Assembly (NCBI GenBank): GCA_964590505.1
Contig: CAZPVV010000001.1
Location: 1 to 44,727 of the forward strand
Source of the DNA: an uncultured Candidatus Saccharibacteria bacterium
GTDB taxonomy: Bacteria; Patescibacteriota; Minisyncoccia; Phycocordibacterales; Phycocordibacteraceae
Length of the DNA: 44,727 nt
Direction: 5' to 3'
In this document: positions 7 through 7,670 of the stretch, in pieces
Layout: each line of letters starts with the position of its first letter
How positions within the stretch are numbered: position 1 is the first letter of the stretch
Notes under the pieces: model-generated
What the model saw: only the letters and a program-made list of their open reading frames with translations
The model's database searches: none
What the model was told of the DNA's origin: nothing
Program-made: the position numbers and the translations under genes

Positions 7-948
7 GTGGAGAAGTACGTTGCAATAATGAATGCAGCAGAGAGGGCAGCAGAGATGGTAAAAGCAAAGCCATCCTTAAGTGAAGAGGTTGAGCATAATA
101 CGAGGGAGAGAGCCGCGAACTTTTTAGTTCGCTTTGCTGAAGGAGTTGACGACGACCTCGGGACTTTGAAAGAGAAGCTAAGTAAAGTTGAAGCAGACAC
201 CGAATTGCTTGTAGCAACAACTCGCACACTTTTTCAGCAAGGTGAAGCAATAGACCTTGTTGAAGGAGTTCGCGTCTCAACGCAAAGTTCAGCTGAATTA
301 GCAGAAGACCCACGAGATATAAAAAGAATAGAATCGCTTCTCATCAGAACTTATAAAGATAAGACAAAGGAATTTCAGGATAGTGTAATTGAATCCTTTC
401 GGAATGCGACGAGCACGCATGAGAGTAAGTTTTATGTCTTGCGTTATAAGGAAGAAATAGCTGCTTTGCTTCGCTTTGATCAGCATCAGGCCGGTGAGAA
501 ATATTTTGGCTCCTTTGTGTCTGACCCAGCCTTTGAGAATGGAAAAGTGGGAGAGGCGTTAATGATCAATGCGATGTCGACCGAGGCTAGAGACTCAATT
601 ATCCTGGCACACTGCAACCCACTCTCTCCTATAACGCAGAAATACATTGAGACAGGATTTGTTGCGACAAAACTAGAGGATTACGCTGGCGTACCCAGCT
701 TCTCCATTAGACTGGATGCAAAAGCAAATACGCAAAGTGAAACAAAATCATGGAAGCCTGAGCGTATTGTGCAGGCAGCGCTTTCGCAAAATAACCCAAA
801 CATACAAGCCTTTAGTGTAAAAAGACCAGAAGAGATTCCTTTTAATTTAGTAAATCAAGGATTTTCGCTCACCCGTTACCTTAAACAGGGAGAACGACTC
901 TACGCTGTGTTTGAACGACTTTCATCTGAAGAGAAGGGTTCTGCGTAG
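7..948 (+). CDS. hypothetical protein; the frame stays open to the window edge, so the 5' end may be missing
   Basis: 313-codon ORF in the track. I recognise no family motif. The 3' end overlaps the convergent gene by 49 nt. Confidence 0.5.
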   Translation: MEKYVAIMNAAERAAEMVKAKPSLSEEVEHNTRERAANFLVRFAEGVDDDLGTLKEKLSKVEADTELLVATTRTLFQQGEAIDLVEGVRVSTQSSAELAEDPRDIKRIESLLIRTYKDKTKEFQDSVIESFRNATSTHESKFYVLRYKEEIAALLRFDQHQAGEKYFGSFVSDPAFENGKVGEALMINAMSTEARDSIILAHCNPLSPITQKYIETGFVATKLEDYAGVPSFSIRLDAKANTQSETKSWKPERIVQAALSQNNPNIQAFSVKRPEEIPFNLVNQGFSLTRYLKQGERLYAVFERLSSEEKGSA

Positions 949-1700
949 TTCCATAAGACATCGAATATTGATCGGTGCGCATTTGTAATGTGTGTATCGT
1001 GGACAATCATTGCTACTGGTTCGGCACAATCAACAACTATGTAGCTGGTTTTTCCGTCATACATCTGGATGATGGTTTTTGAGGGGGCATCTGCGTACTT
1101 TATGAGACGAGAGTCTGTAACCGAGGTGTCGTATGCACTCAACATACTGCGTGTGAAGGGGGTATCCGCCAGAATGCCCTTTTTCTGAATGCCCTTCCGC
1201 TTTCGTTTCTCTAGGTACTCAGTATTGAGATCGCGGTACGATTCATCGATGGCCTTGAGGTCTGCAAAGGTATAAATGACCTCCTTTGCCGAAAGAGTAT
1301 CATTTAGAACCTTTGCGATACCTCCCATCCCTTCAAAGAACTCAATTCCAGGCTTTCCTCCGGCAATGTTATAGGCAGAAGAGAGAGGTCCAAGCGCACC
1401 TTCAAGAGCTGACAGCGCATCTTTTGCTTCGTTTTGCTTTCGTTCAATGATTTCCTTGAGTTTAAGAGGATGCGCCGCAACAAACTCTGCAACTTTGCCT
1501 GCTTCTTCTCGTTTCTCAACAAGGCCCAGCCCAGAAAGCTCGCCCAGCACCTTATACGAGAGCGTTCTAGACACTGCTCCTCTGCGGGCTATGTCACTTG
1601 CACTTGAAGGTCCACTACGAACGAGTGCTTCATAAAGTCGTGCTTGCTCACCACTAAGCCCTGCCTGGATAAGGTGTTGTTCAAAAGAAGATGTGTCCAT
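900..1700 (-). CDS. TrmB-family winged-helix transcriptional regulator
   Basis: The N-terminal LYEALVRSGPSSASDIARRGAVSRTLSYKVLGELSGLGLVEK is a typical TrmB/MarR-like wHTH. The 266-aa length fits TrmB N plus C domains. Confidence 0.75.
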   Translation of the reverse strand: MDTSSFEQHLIQAGLSGEQARLYEALVRSGPSSASDIARRGAVSRTLSYKVLGELSGLGLVEKREEAGKVAEFVAAHPLKLKEIIERKQNEAKDALSALEGALGPLSSAYNIAGGKPGIEFFEGMGGIAKVLNDTLSAKEVIYTFADLKAIDESYRDLNTEYLEKRKRKGIQKKGILADTPFTRSMLSAYDTSVTDSRLIKYADAPSKTIIQMYDGKTSYIVVDCAEPVAMIVHDTHITNAHRSIFDVLWNYAEPFSSDESRSNTA

Positions 1701-1710
1701 AAATTATATT

Positions 1711-1730
1711 TTGTCATAGAATCGTGACAA
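1711..1730. promoter_or_regulatory. perfect inverted repeat TTGTCA-N8-TGACAA just upstream of the TrmB-like start; candidate auto-operator
   Basis: Read directly as ttgtca tagaatcg tgacaa. It sits next to a minus-strand TATAAT box (1703-1708). Confidence 0.4.
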
Positions 1731-1809
1731 AAACAACCTTAAAACCGTGGATTGTCTGTAAATAAAGGCTATTTATGAGACACATCATCGCAATTTATGT
1801 TCCAACACA

Positions 1810-1838
1810 TTGACAGAAGGTGAATACTGGGCTATGCT
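1810..1838 (+). promoter_or_regulatory. sigma70-type promoter TTGACA-17 nt-TATGCT facing the GC-rich island
   Basis: TTGACA at 1810-1815, a 17-nt spacer, TATGCT at 1833-1838. It has the same architecture as other promoters readable in this window. Confidence 0.55.
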
Positions 1839-1844
1839 ATTGGA

Positions 1845-2287
1845 AGTTAGATGGTCATTCAAGGAGGTGTTCAGAAATGTGCTCCCCACCCTCTAGTCCT
1901 GAAAGGGAAGGTACTCGAACCTCTCGCAAGAGCTAAGTCGAGAAAGAGGAGAGAGTGGGGATGAGAAGCGCATTTCTTCACATCTATTTGCCAGAAAGGC
2001 AGTGCGTAGAAGGAAGGTCCGCAAATACCGTCCTTTCTAGGTACTTGGGGCTTATGCCCGACAACCCCTTTCGCCCGTTTTCCTTGTGAGGAGATCGGCT
2101 GGTCACAAAGGACTAACCTCCCTTTGCGACTAGAAATGTCCTCACAACAGAAGAGGAGTCATTTGATAACTGAATAGAAGGGAACCATGAGCGAAGGAGA
2201 GAGCGCTCGTGGTTCCTCCCATGCACCTTTTTGGGTGTGGGGGAGGGATCACCGCTGTGGTGGTTCTGTTAATAGAAGGAGAAGGTT
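1845..2287 (+). promoter_or_regulatory. structured leader RNA of about 440 nt containing three micro-ORFs (19, 42 and 34 codons)
   Basis: No ORF of 60 aa or more before 2209. A long-range helix pairs 1874-1894 with 1950-1976. A 13-bp stem pairs 2181-2193 with 2204-2216. There is a C(GCAA)G loop at 1925-1928. The micro-ORFs are 1877-1936 (SD AAGGAGG), 1961-2089 and 2187-2291. Confidence 0.45.
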
Positions 2288-3350
2288 ATGAACCTTCTAG
2301 TGATCGATGCCCGCTCGCGGGATCTGCGTTGCTGGATGGCCTCGGCCACCCAGTGTTTCCAGACCCGGGCGGTCTGGAAGGCCGAAGCACCATTGGTGCT
2401 TCGGTATGCGGCAGAAATCGGTTCTTTGCACCAACTGGTGCAAAGAACCGATGAGGGGGTGCAAGCCCTCTTCCCAGGACCAGTCTTGGTCCTGGGATCC
2501 TACCAGGCGGTAGGATCTGCTGGGTTCACGGAGACCTCCGTGAACCCGCACCTCCACGGGCTGACACCCGTGGAGGTGTACGGCATCCTTAGCCCCGCTG
2601 CTGCGGGTCTAGTCCGCTTTGGGGAGCCCATAACAGGGGTTCTTCTCAGTGGATTAGTCAAGGCCCGGCTTCTGCCGGGCCAACAAAGCAGCAACTGCCA
2701 GACGGCAGCTGCTGCGCGGGCGGCAGGCCGGCTTCTGCCGAGCCTTCTTCCTGTGGTCACTCTGGCAGAAGGCCAGAGTGACCGGGTCAGAGTATGGAAA
2801 CTCGAGGGGACCGAATGTCTCTTTGAGTTTCCAGAAGAACATCAGCCGGGCTTTGGTCCGGCTGACATCCTCCGCCGTTGGCTGGAGGACGCTGTCGTAC
2901 CCTACGGGGCACGACATGACGCCGGCGGCTACGGCCACGCGGCGCTCATTCTACGGAAGGCGCTTCGTCGCCTTCCGTGGGAGGTTCAAAGAGAGGCACT
3001 CGCCTCTCTTTTCAAGAACTTTCCTACCGAAAGGTGGGAAGAGGTCCATTTCGACGAGGTGGATGAATATTATTCCGCCTGCGACAGGCGGGGGATCTGG
3101 TTCATCGAGCCAGATCCAGAGGATCCCTGTGGGGTCCTCGTCGAGTCCCTTCGCGACGCGGAGGGAAACAGGAGACAGATCCGGCTTCGGCCGAATCTGT
3201 CTCCTGAGACGGAGGGTCTCTTCGTGGAGACCCTCCGTCAGGTTCTCATTGAGTATAAGGAGAACGGTTATGTGAAGTAGGTTGGTTTCCCGAGCGCACG
3301 GTTACGCGCTCGGGACTCCTATTTAGCTCACGACAATGGTGTCGTGAGCT
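2281..3350 (+). other. array of about 28 consecutive, non-repetitive stem-loops (stems 5-16 bp, loops 3-10 nt)
   Basis: Arms read directly. Examples: 2417-2432/2437-2452 (16 bp perfect), 3208-3220/3227-3239 (13 bp), 2549-2560/2567-2578 (12 bp), 2755-2766/2772-2783 (12 bp), 2522-2532/2537-2547 (11 bp). The fuller list is in the findings. Confidence 0.8.
2288..3280 (+). CDS. hypothetical 330-aa protein; coding status uncertain because the whole ORF coincides with the hairpin array
   Basis: SD GAAGGAGAAGG lies 3-4 nt upstream of the ATG. The ORF is long for this GC content. The C-terminal two thirds look protein-like. No motif recognised. Confidence 0.45.
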   Translation: MNLLVIDARSRDLRCWMASATQCFQTRAVWKAEAPLVLRYAAEIGSLHQLVQRTDEGVQALFPGPVLVLGSYQAVGSAGFTETSVNPHLHGLTPVEVYGILSPAAAGLVRFGEPITGVLLSGLVKARLLPGQQSSNCQTAAAARAAGRLLPSLLPVVTLAEGQSDRVRVWKLEGTECLFEFPEEHQPGFGPADILRRWLEDAVVPYGARHDAGGYGHAALILRKALRRLPWEVQREALASLFKNFPTERWEEVHFDEVDEYYSACDRRGIWFIEPDPEDPCGVLVESLRDAEGNRRQIRLRPNLSPETEGLFVETLRQVLIEYKENGYVK

Positions 3351-3366
3351 AACAGGGGGTTCTATC

Positions 3367-3738
3367 ATGGACATCGTTCTGAACCAGGGAGGAGAGGTTG
3401 CGGGTGCCTCCTCCTGGACGACGGGCTTCAAAGCCTACACCCGTTGCCGACCCGCTTTCTTCAGCGAGGAGCAAGTGCTCGCGCACGCGCTCAAACTGGA
3501 GGAAGAATGGGGGAGCAGGCACGCGCTCGCTTGGCTCGAACGGTGGTTCGACCGGCAGCGGTGCCTTGGGCAAGGACCCCGTTCTTGCCCACTCCAATGG
3601 GCTCGCGACAAACGTCGTGGGCCCATAGAGTTCTTACGCACTTCCTGTGTTTGCACATCCCTGCATCACTCTGACGGAGAAGAAATCTCTCTCCTCGGCC
3701 GTCATGCTGGTGCACGGGTTTGCGAACATAGGAGGTAA
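3367..3738 (+). CDS. hypothetical 123-aa protein
   Basis: SD-like AGGGGG lies 8 nt upstream. The stop is 2 nt before the next start. Several overlapping alternative frames in this GC-rich stretch make the call tentative. Confidence 0.4.
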   Translation: MDIVLNQGGEVAGASSWTTGFKAYTRCRPAFFSEEQVLAHALKLEEEWGSRHALAWLERWFDRQRCLGQGPRSCPLQWARDKRRGPIEFLRTSCVCTSLHHSDGEEISLLGRHAGARVCEHRR

Positions 3739-3740
3739 CA

Positions 3741-3923
3741 ATGTCGCAAAAGGTCTTCTGCCTGCTCACCATGGCCGTCGTTCTGCTGCTCTTCGCAACG
3801 TTCATGGCTTACGCGAGCTACCACGACTTCGGGAAGCTCGTCCCCCAGGCCATCTTCACCGTCGGCGCATTCGTCGTTGGTGCGGTGGCCGCCGTGGGGT
3901 TCATCTTCGTGAAGGAGGAATAA
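3741..3923 (+). CDS. small membrane protein, 60 aa, two predicted TM helices
   Basis: SD TAGGAGG lies 6 nt upstream. There are two hydrophobic segments (LLTMAVVLLLFATFMAYA and FTVGAFVVGAVAAVGFIF). A terminator follows. Confidence 0.6.
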   Translation: MSQKVFCLLTMAVVLLLFATFMAYASYHDFGKLVPQAIFTVGAFVVGAVAAVGFIFVKEE

Positions 3924-3935
3924 TCATGAAGAAGA

Positions 3936-3966
3936 ACAAAAACGCCCGCTTCGGTGGGCGTTTTTC
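3936..3966. terminator. bidirectional intrinsic terminator with a C(UUCG)G-capped stem
   Basis: aaaaacgcccgc ttcg gtgggcgttttt, flanked by an A-run and a T-run. It serves the island operon and the convergent gene that ends at 3985. Confidence 0.7.
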
Positions 3967-3984
3967 TATATTCAGATACCAAAC

Positions 3985-4788
3985 TCAATTCTCAACCCCA
4001 TACTCCCTATAGAAATCCTCTATCGGCGCAGACGCACGAAGCGGAAGCATGAGCGGTTCGGTCATGATGCTCGTGAGTGGTGCATCAGGCGGAAGAGTCT
4101 TTAAGCGTTCTGTAAGAACAGACGCTAGTTCTTTATTTAGTGTTCCGTCACTAGTGAGGAACTGACCCCAGAGCATGGTTCCTTTCTGCCAGGACTCTTC
4201 TTCTGTATTAGGTACAAGATGGTCTGTAAAACTAGCAGGGTAGAGTGCGCGGTACTCCTTACGGTTATATAGCCATGAGTTACCCGTCATAGTCGTCACA
4301 TCTGGGTGCTCAGCTTTCAGTGTGCGAACAGCATCAGCAATCTCAGAACGTCGTTGTAGAACCTTATCACTTTGTAGGGGGCCAGTTGGTCCATACTCTG
4401 CATTCACAAAATGCATCTGCGCCACTTTGGTATCAGGATCAAAGGTACAACTAGAACACCCAAAACGGTGTCCTTCTTGATAGGGAATAAGATCGGTGCG
4501 GGTCTCTTTCAAATACTTCTCATACGCAATCTCAAGAAAGTTATCTCTCGTTAAGTCAGGATGCTTTACATACGTGTCTTGCGCACGATCAAATCGGTGT
4601 ATGTTCTGGTGGATCATTGGTGCATAACTCTCGGACGCCATAACGAGTGACGTTTGGTTTCGCTCGGCCATCACCTCCGCAACGCTCAGCTGAAACGCAA
4701 AGAAGTCTTTCTCAATAGGAATCTCTTCTCGTGGTGTCCACCCCTCTTTAGAAAGAGCTTCAGCAGGTTTTGTGGGCATTCTCTCCAT
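3985..4788 (-). CDS. hypothetical protein, 267 aa
   Basis: Clean ORF. A TATACT box lies 8 nt upstream of the ATG on the minus strand, which looks leaderless. No family recognised. Confidence 0.6.
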   Translation of the reverse strand: MERMPTKPAEALSKEGWTPREEIPIEKDFFAFQLSVAEVMAERNQTSLVMASESYAPMIHQNIHRFDRAQDTYVKHPDLTRDNFLEIAYEKYLKETRTDLIPYQEGHRFGCSSCTFDPDTKVAQMHFVNAEYGPTGPLQSDKVLQRRSEIADAVRTLKAEHPDVTTMTGNSWLYNRKEYRALYPASFTDHLVPNTEEESWQKGTMLWGQFLTSDGTLNKELASVLTERLKTLPPDAPLTSIMTEPLMLPLRASAPIEDFYREYGVEN

Positions 4789-4856: not shown

Positions 4857-5129
4857 CTACTTCACTGCGTCCTTAAGTGCCTTTGCAGCACGGAACTTAG
4901 GAGTACGTGTTGCGGCAATCTTGATGGTCTCTCCAGTGCGAGGGTTGCGACCAGTGCGAGCTGGGCGAGCCTTTGCGCTAAAGATACCAAGTCCTGCGAT
5001 GGAAACTTCGTCACCTGACTTAAGTCCACCAGTAATGCAGTCAATGATGGTCTCAACTGCGCGATCTGCATCAGCGCGTGTGCCACCGAGCACATCCTGC
5101 ACCTTTGCTACGATATCTGCTTTGTTCAT
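4857..5129 (-). CDS. hup: HU-family DNA-binding protein
   Basis: 90 aa. MNKADIV..., the GLGIFSAKARPARTGRNPRTGETIKI arm, and the PKFRAAKALKDAV tail are canonical HU. Confidence 0.9.
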   Translation of the reverse strand: MNKADIVAKVQDVLGGTRADADRAVETIIDCITGGLKSGDEVSIAGLGIFSAKARPARTGRNPRTGETIKIAATRTPKFRAAKALKDAVK

Positions 5130-5177
5130 GAGGGAGCGTTTAGGGTTAAGAACACCCTGCGTGAGGGTATGTTAAAA

Positions 5178-5205
5178 AGTATAGGAAATGCGCCATATTA
5201 TGCAA
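5178..5205 (-). promoter_or_regulatory. hup promoter TTGCAT-16 nt-TATACT (minus strand)
   Basis: Read on the reverse complement; it lies about 50 nt upstream of the hup ATG. Confidence 0.5.
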
Positions 5206-5239
5206 TAGGGTAGGAAATGGGTGGGGATAGCCCATATTT

Positions 5240-5268
5240 TTGACAAAATATTCTCAAAGTGTTATATT
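5240..5268 (+). promoter_or_regulatory. orphan plus-strand promoter TTGACA-17 nt-TATATT
   Basis: Near-consensus boxes, with both neighbouring genes on the opposite strand. Confidence 0.5.
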
Positions 5269-5274
5269 TTGTTC

Positions 5275-5393
5275 AGCACTGAAAACACAGTAGCCGTCCC
5301 GCAAGGGATCTGAGCTTAACATCCACGTGAAGTTCTACTTTTTTACTCTTTCAAATTAAAGAAAACCCGCGCACTCTAGCGCGGGTTTTCTTT
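5275..5393 (+). ncRNA. candidate small RNA of about 115 nt (promoter to terminator, no ORF)
   Basis: The interval is bounded by the 5240 promoter and the 5366-5385 terminator stem plus T-run. It contains a CCC(GCAA)GGG hairpin at 5298-5307. No start codon with an SD. Confidence 0.35.
5361..5393. terminator. bidirectional intrinsic terminator
   Basis: aaaacccgcgc actcta gcgcgggtttt, with T-runs on both strands. It lies downstream of rny on the minus strand. Confidence 0.75.
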
Positions 5394-5404
5394 ATCTCCT
5401 TAAT

Positions 5405-6913
5405 CTAGCGAGCAAACTCAACAACTCTGTTCTCGCGGATGATATTTACCTTGATTTCTCCAGGATACTTCAGTTCCTCCTGCACGCGGATAGCTATATC
5501 TTTAGCCATTTTGTGCATCGCAAGGTCGGTAACTTTGCCCGGATTCACAAAGATTCTAATCTCGCGTCCAGCCGAAATGGCGAAGCTCTTCTCTACACCA
5601 GGGAAGGACGCGGCAATGCGCTCAAGATCACCCAAACGCTCAAGATACCGCTCCACCGTATCGCGACGAGCACCGGGGCGCCCTGCAGATATTGCGTCCG
5701 CCACCTGAACGATCATTGACTCCGGTGTTTCATACGGATACTCCTCATGGTGCGACTGCATGGCCTGAGTAATACGCGGATCAACGCCGTATTTCTCTAG
5801 AATGCGGCGACCAATCTCAACGTGCGTACCCTGAACGTCGTGGTCAACGGCCTTGCCGATGTCGTGAAGGAGTGCGCCGGCGCGTGCAATGTCTGGGTCG
5901 GCTCCGAGTTCCTCTGCAAGCATGCCTGCGATGTGTGCCATCTCAATAGAATGCTGAAGTACGTTCTGTCCGTAGCTGGTACGGAAGTACAGGCGTCCAA
6001 GAAGAGACACCAAGCGCGGATCAAGTCCCACCACACCAACTTCGTATGCAGCTTCCTCACCCTTTTGCTTCATCATGTCGGTGACTTCTTGTTTGGTCTT
6101 CTCAACCGTCTCTTCAATCTTCGCTGGCTGAATGCGTCCGTCCTCAATCAACTTCTCAAGCGCCATCTTGGCGATGTGTCGTCGTAGTGGATCAAAGGAA
6201 GAGAGGGTAATACGATCAGGTGCGTCATCAATGATGACGTCTACACCAGTCGCGCGCTCAAAGGTCTTGATGTTGCGTCCTTCTTTGCCGATGATCTTTC
6301 CCTTAATCTCCTCAGAAGGAATAGAAACAGAAAGTGTCATCACATCAGCGTTTACGGGAGACGCCATGCGATGAATGACGGAAAGCAAAATAGAGCGTGC
6401 TTTTCCTTCAAGCTGTTTCTTGCCGTGTGCATCAAGTTTTTGTGCACGCGTCAAAAGGGCGTTCTCGTACGCTTTCTCCAAATCTTTCATAAGAAGCGCA
6501 CGACCTTCTTCTTCCGTCATATGCGCAAGTTGTGAAAGTTCTTGTCTGCGTTCACGAAGCAGGTTCTCTGCTTCTTTGCGCATGTTGCCCGCTTCAGTCT
6601 CTCGCGCTTTCACATCGTCAGCCTCTTCGCTGATGTTGCGTTCACGCTCATCAAGAAACGCTTCGCGCTTGGCGAGTCGCTCTTCTCGCTCACGAAGTGG
6701 ATCAAGGCGTTCCTCTTCAATCTCTTCAGCTTCAGCCCGAGCATTCTCCACAATTTGGTCTGCCCGCTCCTTTGCTTCAAGAAGTTTGCGCTTCACCTCA
6801 AGCTCCAAAGACCCTCTCTGACCAAGTGCGATGAGCAAACGAAGCACGTAGCCGAGTGCAATTCCCGCCATACCACTTGCTGCAAGCAGTATGAGTACTA
6901 GTTTTATAGACAT
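5405..6913 (-). CDS. rny: ribonuclease Y
   Basis: N-terminal TM, coiled coil, KH domain (GKEGRNIK) and HD domain (LLHDIGK). I trimmed the track ORF start (6979) to the Met that precedes the TM helix. Confidence 0.9.
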   Translation of the reverse strand: MSIKLVLILLAASGMAGIALGYVLRLLIALGQRGSLELEVKRKLLEAKERADQIVENARAEAEEIEEERLDPLREREERLAKREAFLDERERNISEEADDVKARETEAGNMRKEAENLLRERRQELSQLAHMTEEEGRALLMKDLEKAYENALLTRAQKLDAHGKKQLEGKARSILLSVIHRMASPVNADVMTLSVSIPSEEIKGKIIGKEGRNIKTFERATGVDVIIDDAPDRITLSSFDPLRRHIAKMALEKLIEDGRIQPAKIEETVEKTKQEVTDMMKQKGEEAAYEVGVVGLDPRLVSLLGRLYFRTSYGQNVLQHSIEMAHIAGMLAEELGADPDIARAGALLHDIGKAVDHDVQGTHVEIGRRILEKYGVDPRITQAMQSHHEEYPYETPESMIVQVADAISAGRPGARRDTVERYLERLGDLERIAASFPGVEKSFAISAGREIRIFVNPGKVTDLAMHKMAKDIAIRVQEELKYPGEIKVNIIRENRVVEFAR

Positions 6914-7058: not shown

Positions 7059-7670
7059 CTACTTTGACTTGTATACCTGGTCGATGAGTCCGTACTTCTT
7101 TGCCTCTTCGGCAGTCATAAAGAAGTCGCGGTCAACATCCTTTTCAACCTTGGCAAGAGTTTGCCCTGAGGCTTTTGCGAGGATGCGGTTCAAACGGTCT
7201 CGCGTTGCAAGAATGTGGCGTGCGGTGATTTCAATGTCCGCAGCCTGACCCTGCACACCACCCCATGGCTGGTGGATCATGACTTCAGCGTTTGGAAGTG
7301 CGAAGCGCTTTCCTTTGGCGCCTGACGCAAGAATGACTGAGCCCATGGATGCCGCCATTCCCACACACACGGTGGCCACCTGTGGCTTCACGTGGTTCAT
7401 GGTGTCTACAATGGCAAGTCCCGCAGAGACCGAACCTCCAGGGCTGTTCACGTAGAGGAAGATGTCCTTCTTTGGGTCCTCTGCCTCAAGAAACAGAAGC
7501 TGAGCAACCACCAAGTTTGCGGTGTCGTCGTCAACGCCCCCAGAAAGGAACACAATACGCTCACGCAGAAGACGGGAATAAATGTCATATGCACGCTCAC
7601 CAAACTGTGACTTTTCAATCACCATAGGAACGAGCATGCTTGATTCGGGGAATTTATTTGGGTGTGCCAT
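7059..7670 (-). CDS. clpP: ATP-dependent Clp protease proteolytic subunit
   Basis: The GMAASMGS (catalytic Ser) and MIHQPWGG motifs, at 203 aa. Confidence 0.95.

Follow-up and report, generated by a model that had tools for sequence, protein, structure and literature searches.

A structured leader RNA that probably gates translation at the head of a variable operon in an uncultured Candidatus Saccharibacteria bacterium

The DNA considered here in its full length of 44,727 nucleotides (nt), hereafter the window, is contig 1 of the genome of an uncultured Candidatus Saccharibacteria bacterium (587 kb, 75 contigs, 89% complete), and it raises the question of what lies between positions 1845 and 2287, a stretch that separates the minus-strand gene of a TrmB-family regulator (900-1700) from an open reading frame (ORF) of 330 amino acids (2288-3280). 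An inspection of the letters by a model, referred to below as the sequence-only reading, had proposed either a regulatory leader, acting by attenuation or through upstream ORFs, or an independent structured RNA. The answer to which our analysis leads, and to which we give a probability of roughly 60%, is that the stretch specifies a cis-acting structured RNA of an uncatalogued family, which would keep the first translation start site of the operon closed, and that the TrmB-like protein would act on transcription.

Before any function is discussed, the reality of the sequence has to be settled. Positions 1601-4100 are matched at 100% by contigs from three wastewater DNA studies (2015, 2019, 2023) in the pieces listed, and these contigs span both the junction between regulator and leader (1653-2136) and the junction between leader and gene (2117-2552; 2009-2966). 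Since both ends of the leader are thus bridged, the stretch is no assembly artefact. Of the sequencing runs listed as containing it, none is recorded as RNA. For one run an RNA origin was guessed; it contributes one contig of 230 nt (2441-2670; 3 differences) and is no evidence either way.

The positions from about 1845 to 2220 are probably the 5' leader, of ~370 nt, of an operon that starts at a sigma-70-type promoter on the plus strand, TTGACA-17-TATGCT (1810-1838; 10 of 12 matches). A perfect TTGACA, a spacer of 16-18 nt and a good -10 box are present at the matching place in 10 of the 11 leaders of the family described below, the exception being one of the two copies of genome G225 (G225b). 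As the sequence-only reading had stated, no plus-strand ORF of at least 60 codons begins upstream of 2209. On the plus strand, the 443 nt of 1845-2287 have a minimum free energy (MFE) of -176.8 kcal/mol against -141.8 +/- 5.85 for 100 dinucleotide shuffles, none of which is as good (z -5.98). The helices that had been drawn in the 5' part can be read directly from the letters: 1874-1882 (GAAATGTGC) with 1968-1976 (GCGCATTTC), that is 9 bp with one G-U, then 1884-1889 (CCCCAC) with 1955-1960 (GTGGGG), 1891-1894 (CTCT) with 1950-1953 (AGAG), and the stem formed by 1914-1918 (CTCGA) and 1938-1942 (TCGAG). Two further proposals had to be amended: the hairpin placed at 1921-1932 does have its GCAA loop, but its stem counts only 3 bp (1923-1925/1930-1932), and the stems 2082-2089/2103-2111 and 2139-2143/2153-2157 can be drawn, but the comparative data prefer a single hairpin of 64 nt (2084-2147).

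The argument for a functional RNA rests on its relatives, of which 10-11 were located in Saccharibacteria-like genomes of the Candidate Phyla Radiation (CPR) by nhmmer, BLAST and two covariance models. Among named sequences, the locus is closest to L013, a contig labelled uncultured Candidatus Saccharibacteria, in which nhmmer detects a homologous stretch (5055-5422, E 1.3e-7) flanked, as in the window, by a TrmB homologue on one side and a homologue of the 330-amino-acid protein on the other. When 1800-2290 was compared by BLAST with 259 genomes of the family, 7 genomes, own included, gave matches at E <= 0.01, the only long ones being with G225 (75% identity over 284 nt) and G233 (67% over 366 nt). 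A covariance model built on the best-conserved 95 nt (R1) was positive in 3 of 151 genomes of the genus, own included, and added G015 as well as a second copy in G225. With the rebuilt model (R2), a sample of 151 genomes from the order yielded 7 positives, the own genome among them, with clear hits in G368, G057, G391 and G336; a sample of 151 from the class yielded 3, namely the own genome, G368 and, as a new member, G532. Both models find a single leader copy in the host genome itself. Another hit from the order, in G352, was rejected as a likely false positive, as it lies inside a GGACATAAAGGACAT repeat and has no other family motif, and G345 is a doubtful variant that has only the promoter and the tail motif in common with the others; neither entered the covariation counts. 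Judged by these comparisons, the leader family is real, sparse and spread across many genera.

The leader corresponds to no catalogued RNA family; the sequence-only reading had been unable to assign it to a riboswitch or a known large non-coding RNA. Rfam 15 at gathering scores returns no match across the whole window, and with permissive filters 1700-4100 yields 18 chance-level matches (E up to 10), none of them near the gathering score. The best (near 3935-3969) fall on the terminator of the operon, and the only one within 1845-2287 is mir-2068, at 17.9 bits against a gathering score of 99. On 8 related loci, the sole Rfam match is a tRNA. An identity as RNase P, tmRNA, SRP or 6S RNA, considered on the basis of their motifs, was dropped because there is no Rfam match and because the suggestive GAAGGAAGGTCC stretch is not conserved in L013. 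Neither 10 further loci with TrmB paralogues (no convincing R1 or nhmmer match) nor the regions upstream of homologues of the 330-amino-acid gene in other CPR phyla (L006-L012) hold a match to the leader, and its exact pattern has no match in viral contigs. A literature search that covered few subscription-journal papers and no supplements found no published description of this RNA, and the riboswitch passages of PMC11665869 do not describe it.

Conserved pairing in homologues had been named beforehand as a test of the fold, and it is present with many compensatory changes. On four full leaders, RNAalifold predicts 87 pairs, of which 37 show such changes. In a MAFFT alignment of seven leaders (the window, L021, L022, L028, L013, L047 and L049), domain A (1869-1981, plus strand) consists of a long-range helix P1, formed by 1869-1894 with 1950-1981, which encloses the hairpin 1914-1918/1938-1942 with its GCAA loop; 22 of its 33 pairs change on both sides, and 85.7% of the cells are paired compared with 38-53% after a shift of the 3' partners by 1-3 columns. 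The count leaves out the divergent leaders L048, L050, L027 and L052, whose domain A MAFFT was unable to align. Most of the purine run GAAAGAGGAGAGAG (1942-1955) belongs to the 3' strand of P1. Upstream of this helix stands the conserved 5' motif GUYMWUUSARGGAG (1854-1868), also written GUUCAUUSARGGAG, visible in the leader alignments; its GGAG is paired by RNAalifold with CUCC at 2216-2219 in the four leaders, a place where no covariation is possible.

Domain B (2084-2147, plus strand), outlined by R1 and R2, is the 64-nt hairpin, with an outer helix 2084-2095/2136-2147, inner helices 2099-2104/2128-2133 and 2106-2111/2121-2126, a conserved internal loop (CGG opposite AA; AUCGG/GAAAU) and a terminal loop with UAACC. 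Counted on the six leaders known at that point, in an alignment fitted to the model, 15 of its 24 pairs change on both sides and 91.7% of the cells are paired, against 40-49% when slid. For both domains, 0 of 500 shuffles reach the observed values, and the slid controls have only 1-7 pairs changing on both sides. G-U pairs are frequent (e.g. GU:3 at pair 19-51 in the domain B count, UG:3 at pair 53-75 in the domain A count); as these would be A-C mismatches on the other strand, they fit an RNA read from the plus strand. Taken together, the 22 of 33 and 15 of 24 covarying pairs provide the aptamer-like conserved structure that is expected of a riboswitch. Between the two domains, the alignments show a less conserved middle part (1982-2082) with CCGCAAA (2021-2027) and CCGUUUUC (2075-2082) as its conserved elements, and GSUAAG and AAAGAGGAGAGAG are further conserved unpaired or loop elements. 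Two tertiary motifs were considered and rejected: a pseudoknot in which the UAACC loop would pair with GUGGUU of the start hairpin's 3' arm, which by eye has 6 bp in G225a and 3-5 bp or none elsewhere, and a K-turn in the internal loop of domain B, whose sequence departs from the G-A/A-G pattern.

Downstream of domain B comes the part that would link this fold to translation. An unpaired tail, AUUUGAUAACUGAAUAG in the window (2161-2177, plus strand), follows the family consensus UUUGAAAACUGAAUA, which a regular expression matches in 10 of the 11 leaders; the eleventh, L048, shows TTTGACAATTGAAGG, which differs little from it. In 9 of the 11, an AUG with a purine-rich Shine-Dalgarno (SD) sequence before it lies 10-30 nt past this tail. 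In the window, the SD-like GAAGGGAA and AUG 2187 form the expression platform (2177-2218, plus strand), where they stand in the 5' arm of a hairpin 2181-2193/2204-2216 (13-nt arms, 92% complementary) that the conserved UUCCUC (2213-2218) closes. The local MFE folds of 10 leaders place the start codon within a stem in 7, and in 6 of these 7 the 3' arm reaches UUCCUC, so that a platform hiding the SD sequence or the start codon, as known from riboswitches, is found here too. The arms of this hairpin vary between leaders with pairing kept: GGGAACC/GGUUCC, GGAUAA/UUAUUCC and GGAGUA/UAAUUCC. An alternative hairpin, 2209-2227/2234-2252 (74% complementary), can be drawn that would use 2209-2216, which also belong to the 3' arm of the start hairpin; the two are thus mutually exclusive, and the alternative could be an 'open' form.

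The start site at 2187 opens a 34-codon upstream ORF (2187-2291, plus strand), present in the ORF list, whose TGA (2289-2291) overlaps the ATG (2288-2290) of the 330-amino-acid gene in the arrangement ATGA. The search for perfect stems places that second start codon in turn in the loop of an 8-bp hairpin, AGAAGGTT-ATG-AACCTTCT (2280-2298, plus strand). The peptide encoded by the 34-codon ORF is not conserved, only its start site is, and in L021 and L013 the matching AUG begins a longer ORF, which extends into the first gene. Control by an upstream ORF, one of the options raised by the sequence-only reading, fits this ORF, given an AUG found in 9 of 11 leaders, held in a hairpin in 7 of 10, and a stop codon overlapping the main start. 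Together, platform, overlap and start-codon hairpin have the layout typical of a gated start with translational coupling behind it, and they would probably work in this way.

The architecture shown by the letters and their comparison is thus a long-range-helix domain, a 64-nt hairpin, an unpaired tail, and a ribosome-binding site (RBS) with AUG 2187 locked by the UUCCUC hairpin. The mechanism that we propose would have this first start site closed in the default fold. A signal acting on the upstream domains, be it a ligand, a protein or another RNA, would free AUG 2187, and ribosomes would then translate the 34-codon ORF into the AUGA overlap, where they would melt the 8-bp hairpin holding the start codon of the 330-amino-acid gene, so that the cargo would be translated by coupling. 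A palindrome at 1709-1732 is the probable site through which the divergent TrmB-family regulator would contribute a transcriptional layer of control.

Several points weigh against this proposal. The start and the 3' end of the transcript and the translation of the upstream ORF are all inferred from sequence. The opposite, minus strand of 1845-2287 likewise folds better than chance (z -4.35), and the pairing predicted for 1982-2082 in the four-sequence fold has no consensus counterpart in the seven-sequence fold. The covariation counts are somewhat inflated, for domain A as its structure was predicted and counted on the same alignment and for domain B through the fitting of its alignment to the model. 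Since the leader sequences are related, the shuffle control also makes the significance look greater than it is. Besides, 3 of the 10 folded leaders (L047, L048 and L052) have no start-site hairpin of this kind. Finally, the cargo differs between loci, which is unusual for a metabolite riboswitch: instead of the one metabolic or transport theme that would be expected downstream, the family of the 330-amino-acid protein follows the leader in three cases (the window, L013 and L047), a MoxR ATPase with a VWA protein in two, and unrelated small ORFs elsewhere.

On the upstream side of the leader, the divergent regulator (900-1700, minus strand; 266 amino acids) is a winged-helix protein matching Pfam TrmB at E 6e-11, and a homologue stands in the same place and orientation at 7 of the 11 leader loci, where the shared order is a large GNAT-type protein, the TrmB-like regulator on the opposite strand, the promoter and the leader. 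The large protein (7-948 in the window; L013:1038-4187 and others) has a C-terminal GNAT acetyltransferase fold, recognised by a profile comparison with PDB 3c26_A (E 1.3e-5); where complete it counts 608-1049 amino acids, it stands before the TrmB-like gene in every one of the 7 syntenic loci, and its remainder outside the GNAT fold has no match. TrmB paralogues occur in 34 of the 151 genomes of the genus. The palindrome, TTTTGTCA-N8-TGACAAAA with perfect 8-bp arms (1709-1732), overlaps the minus-strand promoter TTGTCA-16-TATAAT of the TrmB-like gene and is the likely operator; a TGTCA-N8/9-TGACA palindrome is also present in L013, L047 and L049, and partly in L022. Closer to the leader, at 1746-1756, relatives share the motif TGTGGATAAC, degenerate in the window as CGTGGATTGTC, with invariant GTGGAT columns in a four-way alignment and a further instance in L047; we take this motif to resemble a DnaA box. 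L047 also shares rny and the homologue of 7059-7670 with the neighbourhood of the window, for which reason the locus appears chromosomal rather than freely mobile. The copy in G015 (L027, contig 34, 45.5 kb) adjoins an rve transposase. This contig has a GC content of 0.55-0.74 in a low-GC bin and carries a LAGLIDADG-like ORF and a class II ribonucleotide reductase, and may be a mobile element or a mis-binned contig. G225 has two leader copies, one of which has no TrmB neighbour.

On the downstream side, the first real cargo gene of the window, X (2288-3280, plus strand), encodes the 330-amino-acid protein of an unnamed family, and homologues were found. X has no match in Pfam, PHROG, PADLOC, NCBIfam or a profile search of PDB sequences, none of the 38 scanned members of its family has a Pfam domain, and the family comprises 199 representative clusters at E <= 0.001 in a library of 1.84 billion proteins, with no confirmed locus in viral contigs. 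Its N-terminal domain of ~190 amino acids carries the motifs VIDARSR, GSYQAxSSAGF, NSNxxTA, EGQSD and FPEEH (loci L006-L013 and L047). At two loci of Parcubacteria type (L012:823-3975; L007:3044-4135), the X gene adjoins the gene of a 1050-amino-acid DEAH/HA2 helicase, a neighbour that is suggestive given the structured X mRNA. The region of the X ORF (2288-3360) is indeed a nearly unbroken series of perfect short hairpins, yet X is a real protein gene with homologues. Of the 43 perfect stems of at least 8 bp in the window, the 2-4 kb bins contain 18, including 16 at 2280-3352; the MFE of the cargo is -682.6 kcal/mol over 1073 nt, and a 400-nt piece reaches z -16.7 against shuffles. In other CPR phyla the X mRNA is over-structured as well (z -5.9, -6.5, -9.9, -6.9 and -3.0), compared with -1 to -2 for housekeeping controls.

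After X and before the terminator, two ORFs of 123 amino acids and of 60 amino acids, the latter probably a membrane peptide, each have their own SD sequence (3367-3923); neither has a credible family match, and this region too folds far better than shuffles (z -14.4). The operon ends at a terminator hairpin with T runs on both sides (3938-3965), detected by the inverted-repeat and terminator scans. The layout of a structured RNA followed by ORFs of 330, 123 and 60 (membrane) amino acids suggested a levivirus-like origin, an idea that was dropped because there are no coat or maturation matches in Pfam or PHROG, because the X homologues lie on CPR DNA contigs and because DNA runs hold the island. 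In G225a and G233, the leader is followed by a phrog_23674 protein, the MoxR ATPase (Pfam bpMoxR, E 2.4e-13) and the VWA protein (L021:7956-10505; L022:3032-5622). The pairing of MoxR and VWA proteins is known from predicted conflict systems; PADLOC gives no match for this cargo.

With this material in hand, the other explanations can be weighed. Regulation by attenuation, through leader peptides encoded by the 19-codon ORF at 1877 and the 42-codon ORF at 1961, is the least probable of them all. Both ORFs do exist, as does the third micro-ORF listed by the sequence-only reading, and AAGGAGG is present at 1861-1867, 9 nt upstream of ATG 1877. Its description as a perfect SD sequence is not supported by comparison: it belongs to the conserved 5' motif, and no start codon downstream of it is conserved across the family. 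An AUG matching that of the 19-codon ORF occurs in 4 of the 11 leaders, the peptides being unrelated, G225a having ACG instead and a 1-nt indel separating the reading frame of G233 from that of the window; for the 42-codon ORF, the corresponding AUG is found in 4 of 11 as well. Since both ORFs lie within co-varying helices, they are read as by-products rather than as regulatory micro-ORFs. Classical attenuation also lacks its other component, as the terminator scan found neither a terminator/antiterminator pair nor any convincing terminator in 1845-2287, only one weak 5-bp site at 2208-2223. An independent RNA acting in trans or binding a protein, for instance as a sponge for a protein or for the 3' end of 16S rRNA through GAGGAGAGAG-type purine motifs, is an unlikely explanation but the best placed of these rivals. 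It would account for the leader being better conserved than anything downstream as the cargo varies, for the G225 copy without a TrmB neighbour, and for the enrichment of the purine hexamers GAGGAG/GGAGAG/AGGAGG, of which the 11 leaders hold 41 against 9.7 expected and the leader of the window 6 against 1.4 (0 of 300 shuffles as high). These counts come from related sequences and are not independent, though, the motif is missing from 2 of the 11 leaders (L013 and L048), and in the window much of it is base-paired within P1. Moreover, a stand-alone small RNA gene would have an end of its own, whereas here a promoter is present but no terminator precedes the SD sequence and AUG that follow the conserved tail in 9 of the 11 leaders.

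A processive antitermination RNA, which would enable the polymerase to read through the hairpins of the cargo, is distinctly improbable, even though it would be compatible with translational gating. The leader does lie directly after a strong promoter at the head of the operon, whose cargo in the window forms near-continuous stable hairpins, and terminator-like sites are enriched in 1600-4100 (8 against 2.4 +/- 1.4 expected, 4 of them on the plus strand inside the operon); but no antitermination RNA is matched in Rfam, and L047 keeps its leader though its X mRNA is not over-structured (z 0.0). Nor does it seem that conservation acts on the DNA itself, as operators, as a DnaA-box-like site or as the attachment or integration site of a mobile island, a very improbable reading for which the conserved palindrome and TGTGGATAAC, the variable cargo and the rve transposase beside the G015 copy might speak. 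Compensatory changes that keep pairing, G-U included, are not expected of protein-binding DNA, the conserved DNA motifs stand upstream of the promoter and so outside the leader, and the chromosomal neighbours that L047 has in common with the window argue against a freely moving element. A gated, cis-acting leader hence remains our preferred reading.

A broader proposal can be attached to this cis-acting leader, which we put forward tentatively and with the odds clearly against it. The leader might represent a large type of sensor RNA, new and restricted to Saccharibacteria-like CPR bacteria, that, together with the TrmB-family regulator and the large GNAT protein, would form a conserved control module for interchangeable accessory and often GC-rich, hyper-structured cargo such as the conflict-system-like MoxR-VWA genes or the X family; it would sense a cellular or infection signal, open translation and possibly harden the polymerase against hairpins.

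CPR (Patescibacteria) genomes are tiny, and we found almost nothing in print on their gene regulation. In this context, a leader of ~370 nt that comprises two co-varying domains is large among the bacterial leaders known, and it adjoins a dedicated regulator and precedes swappable genes that have no assigned function. If its signal were found, it would give a first access to a regulatory circuit of CPR bacteria and help with the function of the X and MoxR-VWA cargo, and the leader could provide those few Saccharibacteria that can be cultivated with a native switch for expression. Should it turn out to be only a start-site hairpin with a long decorated leader, it would be a modest addition to the catalogue of RNA motifs.

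Compared with known systems, the purine-rich SD-like motifs repeated along the leader recall the sponge RNAs of the CsrB/RsmZ type, which display GGA in hairpin loops; in contrast to these, the motif here is of the GAGGAGAGAG type and is base-paired in several copies, the RNA lacks its own terminator and 2 of 11 members do without the motif. With put of phage HK022 and EAR of Bacillus, which are processive antitermination RNAs, the leader shares its position at the head of an operon whose transcript has many stable hairpins, but it has no Rfam match to them, is much larger, and has a translation-start hairpin that those elements need not have. The likeness to translationally coupled upstream ORFs goes further, as the 34-codon ORF ends in ATGA on the main start and this start lies in the loop of an 8-bp hairpin that the upstream ribosome would melt; it differs from them in that only the start site is conserved, not the peptide, and in that the AUG opens a longer ORF in L021 and L013. 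From riboswitch-type leaders, the RNA is set apart by the absence of an Rfam match, by its size of about 330-440 nt in two domains and by a cargo that does not belong to one pathway. It is nevertheless with riboswitch-type and other structured leaders having an SD-sequestering platform that it has the following features in common: a location between a constitutive-looking promoter and the first ORF, a long co-varying domain directly upstream of the RBS, and an RBS held in a hairpin by the anti-SD-like UUCCUC.

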